Notes under the pieces: model-generated | Told to the model about the DNA's origin: nothing | What the model saw: only the letters and a program-made list of their open reading frames with translations | Databases searched by the model: none | Program-made: the position numbers and the translations under genes | From: Candidatus Thorarchaeota archaeon | GTDB taxonomy: Archaea; Asgardarchaeota; Thorarchaeia; Thorarchaeales; Thorarchaeaceae | Direction of reading: 5' to 3' | DNA: 56,239 nucleotides | Assembly: GCA_030612365.1 (NCBI GenBank) | Contig: JAUWOA010000003.1 | Location: 1-56,239 of the forward strand | Shown here: one piece after another, positions 8,893 through 47,229 of the stretch | Position numbering within the stretch: position 1 is the first letter of the stretch | How the letters are laid out: every line of letters begins with the position of its first letter

Positions 8893-9140
8893 AGTAATCG
8901 CTCCGGAGCATTTGCTCAGGCGCGGTATTGCGGTTTAACTAGTTTCTGATACGGAGTTTGTACTATTCGAGGCGCTCTCACGCCGAATCATGAATGACTG
9001 TGGACCTACAGTCGAATGGGGGTAAATATGTTCAGGAGCATCAATCTTCCTGCAACTGTTGCGGGTGTTTTGGGGATAATACACGAGTCTTTTTGGTCCG
9101 CGTGGACAAGGGAGATGGGCCATGGACCGGAGGTGCCCAG

Positions 9141-10715
9141 TTGACTGAGGAATCCTCAAACCGTATATGCAGAGCGTGCAAAAGCAAAGGTGCCACTCAC
9201 CTGTGTGAAGATTGTGGAGCAGTGCTCTGCTTGAATTGTCTTGAAACCAAGTCTACATCTTCATACGTATGCAAAGATTGCCATAGTATATTGGGCACTC
9301 CGTTGCCCGGGCAAAGGTTTGAGGAATGCAGTGACTGTGGGTCTAAGAATTTGAGTGTAGGTAGGCGAATGGAGGAGATATGTCCCGAGTGTCACTCGAC
9401 CCGCACCATCTTGGTAGATGTGAAGCAAAGGAGCATTGCACAAGAACTCAGGCAGGCAATCAACAGCTTGCTGTATGGCCACACAAAACTGAGAGAATTC
9501 AATAACAGATTGATTGGAGCAAAGCGCCTGCTCGTTTCCTTGAGAATGGCTAACTTCTTGCACTATAGGTGGCTGGATGACAAAATCCAGAGCACACAGG
9601 AAGAGCTACCTGCAATCAAGAACCGGATAGGAAACCAAGCGGATATGTTGGCCAGACAAATTGCAGCTGAAACAAAGGGTTTGATGAACACTGCCTCCTG
9701 GTCCGCCTCCCAGTTTCCGTTCATTGAAGGTGTTACAAACAGGGTCACGCATCTGGTCAACCAGTACAGGCACTCTGTGGACGAAGCATTGAGTGAAGCC
9801 GATCTTATCTTGAAGGACGTTACAAAGCAACTAGATGGATTGAACTATTACCGGTCACAGTTCTCCGGTTTCTACAAGCAAACGGAACTCTCAATCAACG
9901 AACTGCCTGTATGTGCGCTACCCAAAGTCAAAGTCACAGGAAGCGATTTCCTCAAGCATGACAAGGCAACTGGCACTCTCTTCATCACGAACAGGAGACT
10001 CGTCTTCATTGGGCAGACAGGTGTTGTTCGCAAAAAGACTGAGATTATCTTTGACTTCCCGCTTCTCTACCTGACCTCTATCGAGGAGGATGGTAGATTC
10101 AGGAAGAGAATGGTCCTGAAGATGAAACAAGGCGAAGTGAAAGTTTCCTGCAGTGAGCAGACGAAGAAAGTACTACCGGATTACGTCGAGATTGCCAAGA
10201 AGTTTGACAGGTATATGCAGACAGACCTGCAGAAGGTACGGAAACTGGAGCAGGTAAATGTCAACGTAAGCGACGTCAGACTCAGGATTGAAGACTTGAT
10301 CTATTCGTTGAATACGGGAAGGAATAGACCGAGATCCTGCATGACATACCCACAGACACCGGCTGGAGCGCACTATGCTGAGCCATCAAGTCCTCAACCG
10401 AGGTATGCCCACCGCGACTACGGAAGCTACCGTCAAGGGGCTCAATTCAAGGACTACCAGGAAAGGACAATTGATAGACGTGCATATCAGCAGTATCCAG
10501 GTGCAAGAGGCGAGATGGCGGCAGAGATTGAAACCCTCAGAAGAAACGCATCTTCTTTGGACAATGCATTACGTGATACTGTTCATCTCTTCAGGGGAGG
10601 AAAACTTGTTCCAGAGGATTTCATCAGACGGTACAAGGAACTGATGCGTGATTCATACTACACAAGAAAGGAAATCGAAAGACAGTCTTCAAGAGATGCG
10701 GGCTACTACAGGTAA
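9141..10715 (+). CDS. ESCRT-I-like protein: B-box/Zn fingers, helical region, GLUE/GRAM-like PH domain, Pro/Tyr-rich linker, Vps23/TSG101 steadiness box
   Basis: CRAC-x7-CEDC-x4-CLNC plus three more CxxC; GTLFITNRRLVF...LTSIEE; C-terminal LDNALRDTVHLFRGGKLVPEDFIRRYKELMRDSYYTRKEI resembles the steadiness box. Probable TTG start at 9141 after GGAGG (ORF track starts at 8994). Confidence 0.7.
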   Translation: MTEESSNRICRACKSKGATHLCEDCGAVLCLNCLETKSTSSYVCKDCHSILGTPLPGQRFEECSDCGSKNLSVGRRMEEICPECHSTRTILVDVKQRSIAQELRQAINSLLYGHTKLREFNNRLIGAKRLLVSLRMANFLHYRWLDDKIQSTQEELPAIKNRIGNQADMLARQIAAETKGLMNTASWSASQFPFIEGVTNRVTHLVNQYRHSVDEALSEADLILKDVTKQLDGLNYYRSQFSGFYKQTELSINELPVCALPKVKVTGSDFLKHDKATGTLFITNRRLVFIGQTGVVRKKTEIIFDFPLLYLTSIEEDGRFRKRMVLKMKQGEVKVSCSEQTKKVLPDYVEIAKKFDRYMQTDLQKVRKLEQVNVNVSDVRLRIEDLIYSLNTGRNRPRSCMTYPQTPAGAHYAEPSSPQPRYAHRDYGSYRQGAQFKDYQERTIDRRAYQQYPGARGEMAAEIETLRRNASSLDNALRDTVHLFRGGKLVPEDFIRRYKELMRDSYYTRKEIERQSSRDAGYYR

Positions 10716-10716
10716 G

Positions 10717-11340
10717 CTAAATGTCCAGCTCGCTCTCCAGAGACCTGATAGCTTCTTCAAGTTCATCTGTTTGACTGGCAGGTCTAGTGGCAGTCGAGGC
10801 TTCTGCTAACCCTGCCTCCTTGTCTATCTCCTGCATAGCAGAAGCCAAATCATCCGATGTAATCTCCGGCATCGTAGCATGAAATGCATCATCAGCGATA
10901 CCACTCTCGATTTCGAATTCCTCTAAGCGCTGAGCTATCTCATCGACATTCGCGACTACTTTCGTGGCATCGGTTGCATTTCCTAGCAACCCAAGGATCT
11001 TGGCGACCTCATCCATGGCGCGATTCGTCTTGGCAGCTGTCTGTGCACGGTTGACATGAGCAAGAATTTTGAGAATGTTGAGCCGCGACCTATCAACAGA
11101 AAGCGCATACCTACGAAACCTGATCATCTCAGTCGCATAGGTTCGATATGCGTCCACCTGACCGGCCTTACGTGCACGCACAGCCCTGCTCCTGGTTCCC
11201 CGCTCCTCCTTCTCGAGCTTGTTCCTCTGTCGTTCGAGCTGTTTCGCTATTATTCGCAGTTGGCTCTTGACTTCTCCAATGTCAGGTTTCTTCCGACCCC
11301 AAGAGAAAGCCTTTCTTATCGTACCCAAGTGCCTCACCAT
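10717..11340 (-). CDS. ESCRT-III subunit (Snf7 family, Vps2/24/46-like class)
   Basis: Basic N-terminal hairpin (QLRIIAKQLERQRNKLEKEE), acidic C-terminal half and MIM1-like end DELEEAIRSLESELDI. Start may be TTG 11328 after GGTGAGG. Confidence 0.9.
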   Translation of the reverse strand: MVRHLGTIRKAFSWGRKKPDIGEVKSQLRIIAKQLERQRNKLEKEERGTRSRAVRARKAGQVDAYRTYATEMIRFRRYALSVDRSRLNILKILAHVNRAQTAAKTNRAMDEVAKILGLLGNATDATKVVANVDEIAQRLEEFEIESGIADDAFHATMPEITSDDLASAMQEIDKEAGLAEASTATRPASQTDELEEAIRSLESELDI

Positions 11341-11522
11341 GTCCGCAGGTTGTGACCCAACAAACGGAGATGCAAATCTGCGTTTAAACTTTCGTAGCCC
11401 GGCTTTGGCGCTGAACCGAAGAGATGTTTCTCGGGGGAATGGTTGATTCTCAGTTGGTCAACAGCGAAAATAAAACACAGACATTCTTAATAGCTTACAG
11501 CACATCTCACACTTGATTTCGC

Positions 11523-12752
11523 ATGTCAGGATCAGGTAGCGACAGGCTAGATATTGGGCTCAAGAATCTGCTCGATAAAGCGATAGACTTGGACAATAGA
11601 GGGATGAAGAAAGAGGCATGTCAGTACTATCTGCGAGCCAGCAAGATTCTCATCAAACTCTCAAAGTCTACGTCTCTCCCTTCTGTTCGAAAGCATTACT
11701 TCAAACGAGCCCAGGAGTGCGTTGACAGAGTTCGATACCTCTCGGGAATCAAGAAGAAGGCACGTGGACCAGTTGATGGTCTGCAGACTCCCCCAAAGAG
11801 CGATATCGGAGCAATCGCTGAATCGACTGTTAGTAAGCGACCTGATGCCACTCCCGAGCCAGACGAAGATACCAAGAGACTCCAGGAGATGATTGCGGAT
11901 ACAATTGTCACAGAGCGCCCCAACGTCAATCTGTCCGAGGTCGCTGGTCTTGAGGATGCAAAACAAGCCATCTATGACGCGATACTGGCACCGATGAAAC
12001 ATCCTGAGTTATTCAAGGGAAAAGCAAGGCAGCCATGGAGAGGCATCCTATTGTATGGTCCAGCGGGATGTGGGAAGACATTGATAGCGAAAGCAGTTGC
12101 AGCTGAAGTCAACGCCACATTCTTCAACGTGTCAGCCGCCAATATAGTGAGCAAATGGCTTGGCGAATCTGAACGTCTAGTCATGAGCCTTTTCGAGATG
12201 GCAAGAAAGAACCAACCAGCAATAATTTTCATGGACGAGCTGGACTCGATTGGTGTTTCAAGATCCGGGGATGATGTTGGAGGCGAAAGGCGGCTAAAGA
12301 CTCAGTTGTTAACAGAGTTGCAGGGGCTCGCAAGCGACCAGAATGAGAGAATTACACTGATTGGCGCGACCAATCTCCCGTGGGAGTTGGACTTTGCTTT
12401 GAGGTCCCGTTTCGAGAAGCGAATCCATGTGCCACTACCAGATAAGAGAGCACGGAAAGAGATTTTCAAGATCCATATCGAAGATGTAGAGATAGCATCA
12501 GAAGTGGACTTCAAGGAGCTTGCGAGTCTTAGTGAGGGATACAGTGGAAGGGACATCGGCGTGGTCTGTAGAGAGGCGGCAATGGAGCCCATAAGGGACC
12601 TTCAAAAGACAGGGAGGATGGAAGAGGAAGCAGAGATACTGAACCTTCGCCCTGTTTCAAGAGAGGACTTTCTCGGAGCCATTGAGAATATCAGGCCAGC
12701 GACATCCCCAGAAGATATCAAGAAGTACATTGACTGGGCGGAGGGTTCGTAG
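11523..12752 (+). CDS. vps4: Vps4 AAA+ ATPase with N-terminal MIT domain
   Basis: MIT three-helix region (KAIDLDNRG...ACQYY), Walker A GPAGCGKT, pore loop SKWLGESE, Walker B FMDELD, GATNLPWELD and SEGYSGRDI. Confidence 0.96.
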   Translation: MSGSGSDRLDIGLKNLLDKAIDLDNRGMKKEACQYYLRASKILIKLSKSTSLPSVRKHYFKRAQECVDRVRYLSGIKKKARGPVDGLQTPPKSDIGAIAESTVSKRPDATPEPDEDTKRLQEMIADTIVTERPNVNLSEVAGLEDAKQAIYDAILAPMKHPELFKGKARQPWRGILLYGPAGCGKTLIAKAVAAEVNATFFNVSAANIVSKWLGESERLVMSLFEMARKNQPAIIFMDELDSIGVSRSGDDVGGERRLKTQLLTELQGLASDQNERITLIGATNLPWELDFALRSRFEKRIHVPLPDKRARKEIFKIHIEDVEIASEVDFKELASLSEGYSGRDIGVVCREAAMEPIRDLQKTGRMEEEAEILNLRPVSREDFLGAIENIRPATSPEDIKKYIDWAEGS

Positions 12753-12755
12753 GGC

Positions 12756-13484
12756 TTGGGTGTCAAAGAGCGACAACGAGAGAAGAAAGAGACAGAAAAA
12801 CCTGTCAAAGATGCGGCCGAGCCCTCGACGGTCATAGAGCAGACTACTGATAGTGATGATTCCGCACATATGCCAGATATTGTTGTTGAAGTGGATGAGG
12901 GGTCCAATGCAACTGACACTATCGATACTGCTGTCGTTGAACCAGAGCAAATAATGGACAATGAAGCGGCCGCCGTAACCGAAATCGTGCCGCGATGGGG
13001 GAACATTGGAGAAGCTGAGTGGATGTATAACATTCCCACGAGGTCGCAGGACCTGGTTCTCTGGGCTGAAGAATGGGGCGACTTCCTGCTTGAATGGACA
13101 GAGTTTGAGAAGATTCATGTTCTCTCTGTTTCAGCATTCATTTCTAAACCCCCATTCAAAGACATACTTGGGAAAGTCAAAGCCTTTAGATCAATCGGAG
13201 ACTCGCTAGTTAGGAAAGACGTTGCTGCATGGCTTGGTCGGAATAGTGAACAACTCAGAGTGTACTGGAGGCCACTGGGGGAGTGGGCGGATTTGGTCTA
13301 CAGATGGGCTCTGGACTCAGGCATACTTCGTCTCGATGTGAAGTCACTGGTCATCCAAAAAGCAGAGCAGGATTTCTCGAAACTTCCTGAAGAGGACATA
13401 CACAGGATAATGGCTCTACTTGTTGAGAGAGGATTTGCCGAGTGGGTTGATAAGAAAGCTGGAGCCATTGTTGTTAAAGTCTAA
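12756..13484 (+). CDS. vps25: ESCRT-II Vps25-like protein with acidic N-terminal extension
   Basis: LVLWAEEWGDFLLEW, then tandem winged-helix pattern (VYWRPLGEWADLVYRWA; IMALLVERGFAEW). Starts 3 nt after vps4. Confidence 0.85.
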   Translation: MGVKERQREKKETEKPVKDAAEPSTVIEQTTDSDDSAHMPDIVVEVDEGSNATDTIDTAVVEPEQIMDNEAAAVTEIVPRWGNIGEAEWMYNIPTRSQDLVLWAEEWGDFLLEWTEFEKIHVLSVSAFISKPPFKDILGKVKAFRSIGDSLVRKDVAAWLGRNSEQLRVYWRPLGEWADLVYRWALDSGILRLDVKSLVIQKAEQDFSKLPEEDIHRIMALLVERGFAEWVDKKAGAIVVKV

Positions 13485-13489
13485 TCGAT

Positions 13490-14248
13490 TCAGGCTTCGG
13501 AAGTGCCTCCGCTCTCTGGATCATCTCTTGATCTCAAACCCGGGAAGTAGTACCGTCCACCCGTGCTGAATCTGATATCGGCAACAGCCATGCCAGCATC
13601 CACTAGACTAGTAAGAACCTGACGAGCATGATCTTCTGACCACTTCAGGGTCATCATGACCTCTTCAATCGAAACGTACCCCTTCAAGGCCGCCATGTTA
13701 ATTACGTCAGATTGGTCTCGACGAAGCTCAAGGGGACGAAGCTCCACGACCTTCACGCCTCCTTTTAGCGTTCGTATGCCGGGTATTAGACCGTGTTCTG
13801 CGACTCGGTTCACTGCCTCGATAACATCACTGAAGCTTACTGACTTGAACTGAGGAAGTCGTTTAACCACCTCAACAATCAGCTCTGCGAGACCCATAAG
13901 TCCCTTCGAAGCGTGGACTGTAGCGACGTCAAGAATTGCCAGCCCAATGTAGTCATAGAACTCGTCAAGGGTGAGACCTTGTGGAACAGACCTCATGGAT
14001 TGAACAGACAGGTCCAACATGTTCATTGCGTTAGGAAAGCTTTCGGGAATTCTCTCGTGGTCAAGGAACCGATAGATATCCGTCCCGAGGCGCCTTAGCT
14101 CACCGATGTTGGACTTTACTTCTTGAACCAGTGCCTCCGATTCTCTCTCGAATGTCCGGATGTCTACCGCACCGAGGTCGTATATCATCTTCAGTTGGTC
14201 CAACGTGGCAATTGAAGCAAATATCTCGGTTTGAAGTCGCTCATGCAT
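13490..14248 (-). CDS. Fusion of Vps28 N-terminal head and Vps22/Vps36 (EAP30) winged helices
   Basis: C-terminal ELRRDQSDVINMAALKGYVSIEEVMMTLKWSEDHARQVLTSLVDAGMA closely matches SNF8/Vps22. N-terminal TEIFASIATLDQLKMIYDLGAVDIRTFERESEALVQEVK matches the Vps28 head. Confidence 0.8.
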   Translation of the reverse strand: MHERLQTEIFASIATLDQLKMIYDLGAVDIRTFERESEALVQEVKSNIGELRRLGTDIYRFLDHERIPESFPNAMNMLDLSVQSMRSVPQGLTLDEFYDYIGLAILDVATVHASKGLMGLAELIVEVVKRLPQFKSVSFSDVIEAVNRVAEHGLIPGIRTLKGGVKVVELRPLELRRDQSDVINMAALKGYVSIEEVMMTLKWSEDHARQVLTSLVDAGMAVADIRFSTGGRYYFPGLRSRDDPESGGTSEA

Positions 14249-25567: not shown

Positions 25568-26728
25568 TTGAGCAGAAGAATGAAGGTATTCTTTGACCAA
25601 ACACAGAACGAACGTGGGAGACTAGACACTACATATTCTACACTTGGCAATCTGCTCACAGACAATGATTTCGATGTAGAACCATATACAGAGTTCATGA
25701 TACTAGCCAAGAATATCAAAACTGCAGAAGTGTTGGTCTTTGGATGCCCAAACAGTTCCAAGCTGCGGCCTGCAGAGATAGATGTTCTGACGAATTATGT
25801 AAAAGCTGGCGGTGGACTATTCCTGCTCTCACTGTCGGGCGGCGACCGCGGCCTAATGAATAATCTCAGCAAGCTGTCCAAGACCTTTGGCATTGAGTTC
25901 GATAATACAGCTGTAAAGGATGAGAGAAGCAATGACGGTTTGCCCACAATGCCGTTTGTCAGCAATCTCACTGCACATCCATGCACTGAAGATGCTCAAG
26001 ACCTTCTATACCCGTCTGGGTGTTCACTGAAGGTGTCAGGGAGCGCAGTGGTATTGGCTGCCACATCTGATATGGCGGACCCAGCAAATCAACCCGTAAT
26101 CGCAGCTGTCGAATACGGGAAGGGGCGAGTCATCTGCTCCGGCAGCTATGAAATATTCCGAAAAGGGGGCGGGCTAAAGCATGCAGGAAACAAGACATTC
26201 GCAATCAATGCCATAAAATGGCTCAGTGGAGATGTCAGACTAGCCAAACCAAGCAAGGTTGCCAAGGCCAAAAAAGGTACGGCCGCTGCAGAAGTGTCAC
26301 CTGCAAAGCTCGATGAGATGGAGGGCGCTCTTCGAAGGCTCGTCAATGCGGTATTTGACCTGCAGAAAGACATAGGAAAAGTAGGAGAGCAAGTCACAAG
26401 AGTCGACAGTAACGTGGAGATGCTGCGCAACCAATTCCAAGATTTTGCAGAAAAGACGCAACAGCAGTTTGGAGTAATGATACCAACCAAGCAATTCAAG
26501 ACTCTAGAAGAGAATCAAGAAGTAGATTTGCAGGCGGACATCAAGGCACTCCAGCGAGAAGTCAAGTCTATACAACAGCTGAAAGATCACATCAAACAAA
26601 GGCACTCCTCCGGAATAATGGCGGAGGAAACCTATGATGAACAAGTCAAGAAACTCGATACTCGTCTGACAAACTTGAAGAAGCATCTAAAAGGGAAGAA
26701 GAAAGAACTGAAGGAGATCGGGCAATAG
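25568..26728 (+). CDS. Signal-less GIFT (GldG/IFT52-like) domain protein with C-terminal coiled coil
   Basis: VFFDQTQNE, LVFGCPNSSKLRPAEIDVLTNYVKAGGGLFLL, NNLSKLSKTFGIEF, GKGRVICSGS, FAINAIKWL; then heptad repeats. Confidence 0.7.
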   Translation: MSRRMKVFFDQTQNERGRLDTTYSTLGNLLTDNDFDVEPYTEFMILAKNIKTAEVLVFGCPNSSKLRPAEIDVLTNYVKAGGGLFLLSLSGGDRGLMNNLSKLSKTFGIEFDNTAVKDERSNDGLPTMPFVSNLTAHPCTEDAQDLLYPSGCSLKVSGSAVVLAATSDMADPANQPVIAAVEYGKGRVICSGSYEIFRKGGGLKHAGNKTFAINAIKWLSGDVRLAKPSKVAKAKKGTAAAEVSPAKLDEMEGALRRLVNAVFDLQKDIGKVGEQVTRVDSNVEMLRNQFQDFAEKTQQQFGVMIPTKQFKTLEENQEVDLQADIKALQREVKSIQQLKDHIKQRHSSGIMAEETYDEQVKKLDTRLTNLKKHLKGKKKELKEIGQ

Positions 26729-36220: not shown

Positions 36221-38011
36221 GTGGGTGAGTCGCGATTGAGCGAGCACAAAACTGTAAACATTGACTTAGAAGAAAGCGAAAACATCACACTAGGCGGAAA
36301 AAGTGGCCTTGACCATATAGACGTTTCAGGCGTTCTAAAAGTGACCAACCCATCGGATCGATGTAGGATATGGAACGTCAAGGTCCACCTAGGTGAAACT
36401 GGCAAAGGCACTGGCCTTCGGAAGAAAACGCTTCCTGGGGGAGAGATTGATGCTGATGGAAAGTGGGAAACATACTACACGATTGGTGTAAAAGATCCAC
36501 TCCTCACACTCACTGAGGTTTATGACACGTGTAGTAGTGTTGAAGCTGAAGAGCCTCAATGGGCCTATGTCTTTGACACGGATAATCCAATCAAGATAAC
36601 AATCCAGTTGAAGAATAACTCAGGCGGACAGATTGACAATATTTTATTGAACAAGACTATTCCTCCAGAGCTCTCCGACATCACCATCGAGAGCGTGTCA
36701 TCAGGAGTGGCTGAGTTTGATGAGGGTACCAGTCAGGTTGTGTGGAAGGACTTCATGATCTACCCTGAGGAAAGCTCCACTCTGGTTGTGACTGCGATTG
36801 GCAAGGTTGATGACGTCAAGTCTAAAGTAGCCGGTGAAATAGTTGTAACCTATAGAGCCGAGGAACAGCAGCGCTCGGGAATAGATCCGGATTTGACCGC
36901 ATTGACAGAATTCCTCACAGGAATCGAGAACGCCGAAACCGAGCCAAATCACTGGGAATGCACACTAGAGTGTTCCAATGAAAGTGATTTAATGATACGA
37001 CTTGACAAGGCAGCAGTGTTCTTAGTTCCAGAGGGTGGTGGTAAGAAAGAGCTAAAGATAGACGAGAACCCTGCGTTTGAGATGGCGCCCGGTCAAGATT
37101 GGAGCGCAAAGTTTGACATTGAGAGCAAGTCGCCGCCGAAATGCAGCCAAGATGTCATCTATACCCCCATGAAAATTGTCACAAAAAGGGTGCTAGGAAC
37201 GGTCGAGAAGACTGCACAGATTATCCCAGTAGCACGAATTGAATACACGAAAGTCTTCGAACCCTCTGCCGTAGACAGCTTTGATAAAACGCCCGTTGAG
37301 GTCACAATTGAAATCACCAACAATGGCTCTGCAAAACTGAACGAGATTCTTGTGGTGGATAATCTTCCTGATGATGTAATGCCTCCTCTAAAGGAGCATA
37401 TCTCTGCCTGGATTCGTGGGAAGGAGTACACTGGCAAGCTTGAGTTTACCAAAGAACCGAATAACCAAGACCCAGAAACCGCACATAAGCTCACATTTGG
37501 GATAAGTAATCTCAAGGATTCCGTAGGAGAACTTGCCCCTGGCGAGAGCGTGAAGATCAACTATGCCATAATGGCATGGAAGAGTAGGCCTGAGAAAGAG
37601 TATCCCAGTCCAATACTATGCTCTGCCAATACGCACCCCGCAGGACTAATGGCCACAGTAGCTAGTGAAGACCACAAGCTGGATATCATATACAAGAAGA
37701 GGAGTATCTCAACGAAGAAGGCGATAAACAAGGGTGCGGACGCCGGGGAGTATGTTGTTGTGCTCGTTGTTGAGAATCGAGGCGAGGTGACTGCGGAGAA
37801 CGTGGTCGTAACGGATTGGATACCAGCTGGATTTGAATATGTGTCAGTGGACCCTGAGGAACTAGTACCCAGAGTAAAACCAGCCCGCAAAGGCAGCAAT
37901 GTCACGTGGACCTTCACCCGGATGAACCCGGGCGAAAAGAAGAGAATCAGATTATCTGTAAGCGGTGAAGGCGAATATGAACGCCGTGAACCCCAAGTGA
38001 CATCTGATTAA
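36221..38011 (+). CDS. Cytoplasmic mu-homology-domain (adaptor medium subunit-like) protein with extra Ig-like/DUF11 repeats
   Basis: VNIDLEESENITL...DVSG, SGVAEFDEGTSQVVW and IVVTYRAEEQQRSGI match AP-mu/delta-COP MHD spacing; two or three more beta-sandwich repeats; no signal peptide or TM. Confidence 0.65.
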   Translation: MGESRLSEHKTVNIDLEESENITLGGKSGLDHIDVSGVLKVTNPSDRCRIWNVKVHLGETGKGTGLRKKTLPGGEIDADGKWETYYTIGVKDPLLTLTEVYDTCSSVEAEEPQWAYVFDTDNPIKITIQLKNNSGGQIDNILLNKTIPPELSDITIESVSSGVAEFDEGTSQVVWKDFMIYPEESSTLVVTAIGKVDDVKSKVAGEIVVTYRAEEQQRSGIDPDLTALTEFLTGIENAETEPNHWECTLECSNESDLMIRLDKAAVFLVPEGGGKKELKIDENPAFEMAPGQDWSAKFDIESKSPPKCSQDVIYTPMKIVTKRVLGTVEKTAQIIPVARIEYTKVFEPSAVDSFDKTPVEVTIEITNNGSAKLNEILVVDNLPDDVMPPLKEHISAWIRGKEYTGKLEFTKEPNNQDPETAHKLTFGISNLKDSVGELAPGESVKINYAIMAWKSRPEKEYPSPILCSANTHPAGLMATVASEDHKLDIIYKKRSISTKKAINKGADAGEYVVVLVVENRGEVTAENVVVTDWIPAGFEYVSVDPEELVPRVKPARKGSNVTWTFTRMNPGEKKRIRLSVSGEGEYERREPQVTSD

Positions 38012-46567: not shown

Positions 46568-47083
46568 CTATACTAACTGCTTCTTGTTTACTAACCACCA
46601 AGCGCCACGCTTACCCTTGATAATGCCCTTCCTATGCATCACTATCTCCACACCCAAGATGGATTTTGCTCTCTCATTGATCTTGTCCAAGCGATCGAGT
46701 ATCGTTCGGCGTTTTCCTTGACTTCCTGTTAGAGCCAGTGCGAGTTCAGGTGTTGTAGCACCTTCATGTTGTAGGAAGTATGCAAGGAGTTTGCGATCAA
46801 GGTCATCTCGGCAGACTTTCGTTTTTGTCAGATCATTCAACTCGTCAAGGTATACGCTGGTCGACTGCTCAGTTTCAAGATGCTCCACCCTTGTCTTCAG
46901 TTGATCAATCTCTTCGGCGAGTTCCATCAACATCGGGGGCAATTCCTCATCAAGCTTCCAGAGGATTGCATCCTTAATGAACCGCTGGCGGCCATTGGCC
47001 CCAGCAAGCTCATCTATGAGGTCCAGTGTTTTCTGATCTAACCGAATACGGATGCTGACAGATGCATTGCTTTTCTTAGTCAT
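46568..47083 (-). CDS. Putative regulator: ribbon-helix-helix, coiled coil and winged-HTH-like domain
   Basis: SVSIRIRLDQKTLDLIDELAG..GRQRFIKDAI (RHH); DDLDRKLLAYFLQHEGATTPELALAL (wHTH). Start placed at ATG 47083. Confidence 0.65.
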   Translation of the reverse strand: MTKKSNASVSIRIRLDQKTLDLIDELAGANGRQRFIKDAILWKLDEELPPMLMELAEEIDQLKTRVEHLETEQSTSVYLDELNDLTKTKVCRDDLDRKLLAYFLQHEGATTPELALALTGSQGKRRTILDRLDKINERAKSILGVEIVMHRKGIIKGKRGAWWLVNKKQLV

Positions 47084-47229
47084 CGCCCGACACCGCACGT
47101 ATCTGTGCCTTGATAGACACAGCAATTGATGCGCTTGACCGAGAAAAAAGGCTTGCCCTAGGCCATGCTATCAAGCGCCCGACACAGTTATAACATCAAC
47201 TTCGAGGGACTCGCAAAGATTACCCTTCG

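Follow-up and report, generated by a model that had tools for sequence, protein, structure and literature searches.

Organization of the locus

[quoted passage not shown] They encode a Zn/coiled-coil/PH/steadiness-box protein (hereafter the Zn/PH/SB protein), ESCRT-IIIA, Vps4, Vps25, and a Vps22 that carries the N-terminal domain of Vps28 (Vps28N-Vps22). The source assembly is a metagenome-assembled genome (MAG) of 2.32 Mb in 188 contigs and is 88% complete. The genes, and the one long spacer between them, are the following.

9141..10715, plus strand: Znr_CC_PH_SB protein, 524 amino acids from TTG 9141; orthologue of ThorAB25_08990 'SB'; family cog.011556
10717..11340, minus strand: ESCRT-IIIA (Vps2/24/46-like Snf7 protein), 207 amino acids; PF03357 Snf7 E 4.7e-11, 43.1 bits against a cut-off of 27.3
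11341..11522, 182 bp: divergent intergenic region between ESCRT-IIIA and Vps4, taken from the gene layout
11523..12752, plus strand: Vps4 AAA ATPase, 409 amino acids; MIT E 1.7e-6, AAA E 1.7e-39, Vps4_C E 1.4e-6; CdvC model E 2.5e-81
12756..13484, plus strand: Vps25, 242 amino acids; PF05871 E 1.4e-12, 48.5 bits against a cut-off of 27; orthologue of ThorAB25_09020
13490..14248, minus strand: Vps28N-Vps22 fusion protein, 252 amino acids; orthologue of ThorAB25_09030

The gaps between the genes measure 1-5 nt, except for the 182-bp spacer, which presumably contains promoters. All five genes occurred in the same order and orientation in each of nine related loci from public genomes, seven of them titled Candidatus Thorarchaeota, and the identity of the Zn/PH/SB protein across these loci ranged from 95% down to 53%. 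The cluster is also kept in G108, the single genome sampled from a sister family of the Thorarchaeaceae. An initial annotation, made from the letters of this DNA without database searches, had placed five contiguous genes here and assigned domains to them; the genes were confirmed at these positions, and every domain assignment, including those of the fusion and of the Zn/PH/SB protein, was borne out by Pfam, by BLASTP to Asgard Vps28 and Vps23, and by AlphaFold2 and Foldseek. We concluded that the locus is the conserved, standard ESCRT membrane-remodelling cluster of the Thorarchaeota, an Asgard lineage lacking ubiquitin, and that it encodes an ESCRT-III/Vps4 membrane-scission engine together with a reduced set of upstream adaptors.

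A Vps28 head domain joined to Vps22

Two modules were distinguished in the product of the 13490-14248 gene.

14009..14248, minus strand: Vps28 N-terminal (head) domain, residues 1-80; BLASTP, Pfam in orthologues, AlphaFold2 hairpin
13547..13969, minus strand: Vps22 tandem winged-helix core, residues 94-234; PF04157 51.4 bits, Foldseek

The EAP30/Vps22 model PF04157 matched residues 75-224 (E 1.5e-13, 51.4 bits) and left about 75 N-terminal residues outside. The AlphaFold2 model (predicted local distance difference test score, pLDDT, 79.6) opens with a hairpin (helices 2-24 and 30-53) and goes on through short helices and a disordered segment (82-88) to two winged helices. The best Foldseek matches to this model were human Vps22 (3cuq_A, E 6.5e-9) and yeast Vps22 (1u5t_A, E 1.6e-6), with Vps36 chains weaker (1.2e-5 onward); the protein thus has the EAP30 core and ranks as Vps22 above Vps36. 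When residues 5-79 were compared by BLASTP with Asgard proteins, they aligned with residues 37-111 of Odin Vps28 (E 1e-8) and with residues 276-349 of HeimAB125_14070, the Vps28 part of a Heimdall UEV-Vps23-Vps28 fusion (E 3e-8). The Pfam VPS28 model matched 19 of 22 orthologous N-terminal pieces, and gave no match to the window's own piece. When PDB sequences were searched with a Vps28N profile, four N-domain structures of yeast Vps28 scored E 0.12-0.25, lower in the ranking than ferritin noise, and the search is uninformative taken alone. The genome contains a single Vps28N, and Odin and Heimdall Vps28 queries matched the Vps22 gene only.

The alternative that these ~80 residues are a helical domain native to Vps22, in which case there would be no ESCRT-I/II fusion, has some apparent support: eukaryotic Vps22 also has N-terminal helices, the Foldseek alignment to 3cuq_A covers 228 columns, and the window's own piece lacks a VPS28 match in Pfam. 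Against it stand the BLASTP alignments to Odin and Heimdall Vps28 and the VPS28 matches in the orthologues, as well as the N-termini of Loki, Heimdall and Odin Vps22, which are unrelated to this one. The Vps28N profile, moreover, gave one match per genome outside the Thorarchaeales, and the frames listed there were mostly of Vps28 size (204-237 amino acids) or UEV-Vps23-Vps28 size (469-490 amino acids), not of Vps22 size. For the thorarchaeal Vps22 KXH75178.1, residues 1-70 have been assigned to the VPS28 N-terminal domain PF03997 with an HHpred probability of 99% (Makarova 2024, PMC10936438, Table S3). We rejected the native-helix explanation as very improbable, since the BLASTP, orthologue Pfam and frame-size evidence effectively refutes it.

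The head domain of Vps28 is therefore present; its C-terminal four-helix bundle is not. Past residue ~80 the chain runs into the Vps22 winged helices, and a Pfam VPS28 scan found no Vps28 C-domain in the genome apart from one chance match, so that the segment is a Vps28-head module and not a Vps28 orthologue. A weak VPS28 match at 46784-46951, within the open reading frame (ORF) 46568-47125, was considered as a stand-alone C-domain and rejected as chance: Pfam prefers PhoU_div there, and VPS28 scores E 0.11. The 120 homologues listed for this ORF form a conserved thorarchaeal family of ~173 amino acids without VPS28 annotation, and Asgard Vps28 queries missed the ORF.

As an observation apart, the family of ORF 46568-47125 (minus strand) is found throughout the Thorarchaeota, has only weak Pfam matches (PhoU_div, RHH, VPS28), and in other thorarchaeal genomes shares the wider ESCRT neighbourhood, for example BAJATHORv1_10470 and BAJATHORv1_10428-10432.

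The Zn/PH/steadiness-box protein

Five regions were delimited in the product of the 9141-10715 gene, whose AlphaFold2 model had a pLDDT of 83.5.

9174..9395, plus strand: Zn-binding region, residues ~12-85; zf-B_box E 0.0016, conserved Cys/His columns, beta strands 20-91 in the model
9414..9860, plus strand: coiled-coil or stalk-like region, residues 92-240; AlphaFold2 helices 92-136, 143-177 and 189-240, pLDDT about 90-98
9906..10214, plus strand: PH/GLUE/GRAM-like domain, residues 256-358; seven strands and a C-terminal helix in the AlphaFold2 model, bPH_3 E 0.035
10344..10436, plus strand: disordered linker, residues ~402-432; pLDDT <50, variable alignment columns
10506..10709, plus strand: C-terminal helical hairpin, residues 456-523, predicted steadiness box of Vps23/Vps37 type; AlphaFold2 helices 456-485 and 491-523, pLDDT >90

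The reading frame is open from ATG 8994, from which the protein would have 573 amino acids. In 17 of 19 aligned homologues the start coincides with TTG 9141 or lies downstream of it, and the TTG, which was also the start first annotated, is therefore likelier than the ATG. In this genus, the 49 further open codons upstream of the family-wide start (8994-9140) include a CNCCGC motif, and Zn/PH/SB frames of 557-573 amino acids occur in four congeners; the segment is a candidate N-terminal extension.

Both Pfam matches of the protein, to zf-B_box and to the bacterial PH family bPH_3, were weak. The Zn-binding region combines a B-box-like cross-brace with a Zn ribbon, and Cys63, Cys66, Cys81 and Cys84 were invariant across 72 homologues. 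Foldseek related the PH region to DH-PH proteins, to the PH-like domain of Lam6 and to the GLUE domain of EAP45/Vps36 (2hth_B, E 9.7e-4, TM-target 0.58); helices following the PH fold reach residue 392. For the C-terminal hairpin, Vps23_core matched the corresponding pieces of 10 of 19 orthologues (best E 5.5e-5) and Mod_r/Vps37 those of 6 of the 19, the window's own among them (E 0.084), and BLASTP aligned it with the steadiness box of Odin Vps23 at E 0.002. These comparisons point to a steadiness box of the Vps23/TSG101 kind, an assignment that is well supported for the family and weakly for the single sequence. It is single-copy in the genome and contains a conserved FIRRY motif; the head of the fusion protein has the motif ASIATLDQL. 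In the initial annotation the hairpin and the fusion's head had been traced to Vps23 and Vps28, and the profile matches looked for on that account were found in the orthologous pieces of both proteins.

The protein is not Vps23, since its N-terminus consists of Zn ribbons and not of a UEV domain, nor is it Vps36, since it has a PH/GLUE-like fold without winged helices in the same chain. Zn ribbons, coiled coil, PH domain and C-terminal steadiness box in one chain are the architecture of the Znr_CC_PH_SB family (cog.011556). We consider it likely that the protein is an ESCRT-I-like membrane or cargo adaptor.

ESCRT-IIIA, Vps4, Vps25 and ESCRT-IIIB

The Snf7 protein is visibly orthologous to ThorAB25_09000 'ESCRT3A', with which it has an N-terminal motif in common, and was classed as ESCRT-IIIA; its C-terminal DELEEAIRSLESEL looks like a MIM1 motif. 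Vps4 has the full MIT-AAA-Vps4_C arrangement, with MIT at 28.5 bits, slightly short of its 30-bit cut-off, AAA at 135.7 bits and Vps4_C at 28.6 bits against a cut-off of 21.3. Vps25, which starts 3 nt past the Vps4 stop, has the tandem winged helices of PF05871 behind ~100 acidic, low-complexity N-terminal residues. An ESCRT-IIIB (Vps20/32/60-like) orthologue of ThorAB25_07240 was found at C103:10643-11380 on the minus strand (E 1.4e-98), outside the main locus, an arrangement shared with Thor AB_25.

Elsewhere, at C117:22454-25000 on the plus strand (locus L033), lies a second Vps22-like protein of about 780 amino acids, the sole paralogue of the locus Vps22 in this genome. EAP30 winged helices (E 1.5e-6) make up its last ~185 residues; the long region before them has no Pfam match and is in part rich in Lys, Glu and Arg and coiled-coil-like.

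Absence of the ubiquitin branch and distribution of the fusion

Whole-genome six-frame scans for ubiquitin (PF00240), the ubiquitin-conjugating enzyme (E2) fold UQ_con (PF00179), UEV (PF05743) and any other VPS28 yielded only chance-level matches (E about 0.2), and jackhmmer searches with three Asgard ubiquitins and Odin Vps23 found nothing in the genome. Genes for ubiquitin, E2, UEV and stand-alone Vps28 are likewise absent from the window. By these Pfam and jackhmmer searches there is no canonical UEV-Vps23 or Vps28 elsewhere in the genome, and of the components that define a ubiquitin-ESCRT pathway, namely ubiquitin, the activating (E1) and E2 enzymes and a UEV reader, they detected neither ubiquitin nor E2 nor UEV. 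Thorarchaeial BAR domains have been reported to be often fused to Vps28 (Eme et al. 2023), and one such BAR-Vps28-like fusion, KXH73277.1, is listed for Thorarchaeia by Makarova 2024 (PMC10936438, Table S3). No BAR-Vps28 fusion was detected in our genome by the PF03997 scan, by two further profiles or by jackhmmer; its gene may be missing from the 88%-complete MAG or too divergent for these searches. Two marginal matches, C23:3154-3756 and C129:11832-14552, do not resemble BAR-Vps28 and were discarded.

The ubiquitin and fusion survey covered 301 Asgard genomes, 78 of the order Thorarchaeales and 223 others; the Thorarchaeales in the profile survey were 77 genomes of the Thorarchaeaceae plus G108. 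Ubiquitin was found in 0 of the 78, in contrast to 204 of the 223 others. UQ_con was found in 1 of 87 Thorarchaeales genomes, there below the cut-off, and in 73 of 87 genomes from outside the order, which served as the positive control. The UEV model PF05743 matched 0 of the 87 Thorarchaeales genomes; as it matched nothing anywhere and so had no positive control, this count carries little weight, and UQ_con is the usable test. The initial annotation's statement that ubiquitin, E2, UEV and stand-alone Vps28 are missing from the window therefore extends to the genome and, with that limit on the UEV scan, to the order.

The Vps28N profile gave exactly one match in 70 of the 77 Thorarchaeaceae genomes, in frames of 246-323 amino acids, the size expected for the fusion, and G108 has a Vps28N-Vps22 gene for 265 amino acids adjoining Vps25 and Vps4. 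Outside the order, by contrast, Vps28N frames were 204-237 amino acids, the size of stand-alone Vps28, or 469-490 amino acids, that of the Heimdall-type UEV-Vps23-Vps28, with a few of about 300-320 amino acids. From these sizes we concluded that the fusion is order-specific: among the 301 genomes it is confined to the Thorarchaeales, and its range agrees with that over which ubiquitin and E2 are lacking.

The Zn/PH/SB family behaved differently. It was present in 74 of the 77 Thorarchaeaceae genomes and also in about 130 Asgard genomes outside the order, at least 128 of which have ubiquitin as well, and in several of the latter group of genomes (for example G029 C17, G118 C69 and G067 C8) its gene lies within ~8-16 kb of those for ubiquitin and Vps28. 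This pan-Asgard spread and this proximity indicate that the Zn/PH/SB protein is an ancestral Asgard component and not a thorarchaeal replacement of UEV-Vps23, and the initial interpretation needs amending in this respect. Only the fusion and the loss of ubiquitin, UEV and the Vps28 C-domain are specific to the Thorarchaeales.

A proposed adaptor-to-ESCRT-III assembly

We propose that the products of this conserved thorarchaeal locus form an assembly leading from an adaptor to ESCRT-III, with the ubiquitin-UEV route excluded, and place the probability of this reading at roughly 0.7. The PH (GLUE/GRAM-like) domain would anchor the Zn/PH/SB protein to the membrane, and its C-terminal hairpin would serve as an ESCRT-I headpiece element by packing on the Vps28 head of the covalent Vps28N-Vps22 chain. 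With the head fused straight to Vps22, the Vps28 C-domain, which is the bridge to Vps36 in eukaryotes, would not be needed. Vps22 would dimerize and bind Vps25; Vps25 would nucleate the ESCRT-IIIB encoded on C103, which would copolymerize with the ESCRT-IIIA of the locus; and the MIT domain of Vps4 would engage MIM-like ESCRT-III tails and remodel the polymer. As ubiquitin, E2 and UEV are all missing from the lineage, selection of cargo or site cannot take the ubiquitin-UEV route of other Asgards and of eukaryotes. It is plausible that the steadiness box contacts Vps28N, so that ESCRT-I and ESCRT-II would be covalently bridged; like this contact, membrane binding by the PH domain and a role for the Zn ribbons are inferred.

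Several points weigh against this proposal. The genome is 88% complete. In Pfam its own hairpin matches Mod_r alone, the Vps23_core call coming from orthologues, and a hairpin profile run against PDB sequences matched no Vps23 structure, a result uninformative by itself. The BAR-Vps28-like protein reported for Thorarchaeia could add a further partner. Other Asgards have the Zn/PH/SB protein alongside ubiquitin, UEV-Vps23 and a stand-alone Vps28, and its ancestral role may therefore sit within a ubiquitin pathway. Finally, the genome encodes four small beta-grasp proteins of the ThiS family (ThiS/Urm1-type) that end in GG, one of which scores above the Urm1 cut-off (29.8 bits).

C50:36112-36360, minus strand: GG-ending ThiS-family protein
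C51:12819-13103, minus strand: GG-ending ThiS-family protein
C101:4815-5129, minus strand: GG-ending ThiS-family protein
C118:7696-8016, plus strand: GG-ending ThiS-family protein

These four could be SAMP/Urm1-type modifiers or sulfur carriers, and because of them the support reaches as far as "ubiquitin-independent" and not as far as "modifier-independent". In a modifier-dependent system, a non-ubiquitin beta-grasp tag of SAMP/Urm1 type would be read by the Zn/PH/SB protein, through either its Zn ribbons or its PH/GLUE domain, so that the system would do without a ubiquitin gene but not without a tag. Besides the four proteins themselves, such a reader would be in keeping with the Foldseek match between the PH domain and the GLUE domain of EAP45, which binds ubiquitin, with the binding of ubiquitin by the GLUE domain and Zn fingers of eukaryotic Vps36 (PMC10936438), and with the short distance between Zn/PH/SB and ubiquitin genes in other Asgards. 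However, the ThiS/Urm1 genes lie on other contigs, and in most archaea such proteins function in sulfur transfer; the genome lacks an E2 or UEV reader, and its Zn modules look more like B-box/Zn-ribbon types than NZF. We regard a tag of this kind as unlikely.

A Cdv-like cell-division machine, in which the Zn/PH/SB protein would resemble CdvA as a membrane-anchoring recruiter of ESCRT-III to the division site, appears no more probable to us than such a tag. Makarova 2024 (PMC10936438) noted that the steadiness-box hairpin is similar to CdvA in HHpred and that Thermoproteales have CdvA-like proteins in which a Zn ribbon is combined with a coiled coil. TACK archaea divide by means of ESCRT-III and Vps4, and a division role would suit a lineage without a cargo tag. 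The locus, however, encodes ESCRT-II (Vps22 and Vps25) and a Vps28 head, which mark the sorting branch and not Cdv systems. Asgards also generally keep FtsZ, which counts against a division machine of this type.

The adaptor-to-ESCRT-III assembly can be taken one step further, to a rewiring of the pathway. In this scenario the lineage would have lost, or never acquired, ubiquitin, E2, UEV-Vps23 and the C-domain of Vps28, its Vps28 head would have become joined to Vps22, the Zn/PH/SB protein would be the sole ESCRT-I element, and a three-protein adaptor (Zn/PH/SB protein, Vps28N-Vps22 and Vps25) would recruit ESCRT-III by lipid and Zn-finger recognition, free of any modifier. We advance this extension tentatively and give it somewhat less than an even chance.

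Relation to published systems

Much of what the locus contains has been described before. Hatano et al. 2022 (PMC9192718, Supplementary Data 1) listed ThorAB25_08990 (SB), 09000 (ESCRT-IIIA), 09010 (Vps4), 09020 (Vps25) and 09030 (Vps22), evident orthologues of the five window genes, and used them in yeast two-hybrid assays. There the thorarchaeal Vps22 interacted with itself, and links of Vps25 with ESCRT-IIIB and of Vps4 with ESCRT-III were seen across the Asgards tested; these results lend support to several steps of the assembly proposed above. The same study noted that Thorarchaeota seemingly lack true ubiquitin homologues and put forward the Vps28 module as the partner of the steadiness-box protein. 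Makarova 2024 (PMC10936438) described the Znr_CC_PH_SB family (cog.011556; also Znr_PH_CC_SB) as a likely ESCRT-I component, ancestral in Asgards, with a membrane-associated PH domain, and noted Vps22 fused to a steadiness box, the Vps28N/SB-fused Vps22 forming cog.002769.

The Thor AB_25 cluster resembles ours in its five genes and their domain architectures, in a common N-terminal motif of Vps22, LFASIATLDQLKK, and in having ESCRT-IIIB (ThorAB25_07240) away from the cluster. It differs in belonging to another genus, and the frame of the first gene of our cluster is open 49 codons further upstream. Identity to typical thorarchaeal homologues is about 55% for the window's Zn/PH/SB protein and about 72% for its Vps22. 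The domain orders of cog.011556 (Zn ribbons, coiled coil, PH, steadiness box) and cog.002769 (Vps28N, two winged helices) are those found here, with no difference in kind. Earlier publications thus cover the cluster, its two unusual proteins and the missing ubiquitin, and the main contribution of the window is one more genome that has this locus. When the modules were first annotated as re-assorted and as replacing the ubiquitin route, the domain logic and the missing ubiquitin were well founded; the design was not, as had been left open, an unpublished one. A one-to-one match between fusion and ubiquitin loss across the order was not found stated in the literature compared here. What the survey contributes is this order-wide coincidence of the fusion with the absence of ubiquitin and E2, together with the pan-Asgard occurrence of the Zn/PH/SB protein.

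With eukaryotic ESCRT-I/II (Vps23-Vps28-Vps37-Mvb12 and Vps22-Vps36-Vps25x2) the thorarchaeal system shares the steadiness-box hairpin, the Vps28 head, the winged helices of Vps22 and Vps25, a PH/GLUE-like module with Zn fingers, and the downstream ESCRT-III and Vps4. It lacks UEV, ubiquitin, Vps37, Mvb12, Vps36 and the C-terminal bundle of Vps28; its PH and Zn modules lie on the steadiness-box protein and not on Vps36, and its Vps28 head is covalently attached to Vps22. The Heimdall UEV-Vps23-Vps28 protein (HeimAB125_14070) and the Odin Vps23/Vps28 pair have a homologous Vps28 head, and ESCRT-I modules are commonly re-fused in Asgards. In those two lineages, however, the head is fused to or paired with UEV-Vps23 upstream and keeps its C-domain within a ubiquitin-binding system; the Thorarchaeota, which lack ubiquitin, have it joined downstream, to ESCRT-II.

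Other genes in the window

Two further genes were noted. In the cytoplasmic product of 25568-26728 (plus strand), a GIFT domain of the IFT52 type (PF23355, E 8.9e-16) precedes a long coiled coil. The 596-residue product of 36221-38011 (plus strand) has a weak match to the adaptor-complex mu-homology domain (PF00928, E 4.2e-4, below the cut-off) and, at its C-terminus, Ig-like repeats of DUF11 (E 1.6e-15).

Implications

The ESCRT systems of Asgards are the closest prokaryotic models for the origin of ubiquitin-directed membrane trafficking in eukaryotes, and a lineage that keeps ESCRT-I, -II and -III parts without ubiquitin shows which components still function when the tag is missing. Through its covalent joining of Vps28N and Vps22 it also offers a minimal adaptor that should be easy to reconstitute. 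Both points can be found already in Hatano 2022 and Makarova 2024. If the rewiring proposed above is true, the Thorarchaeota would represent a natural experiment in rewiring the pathway.

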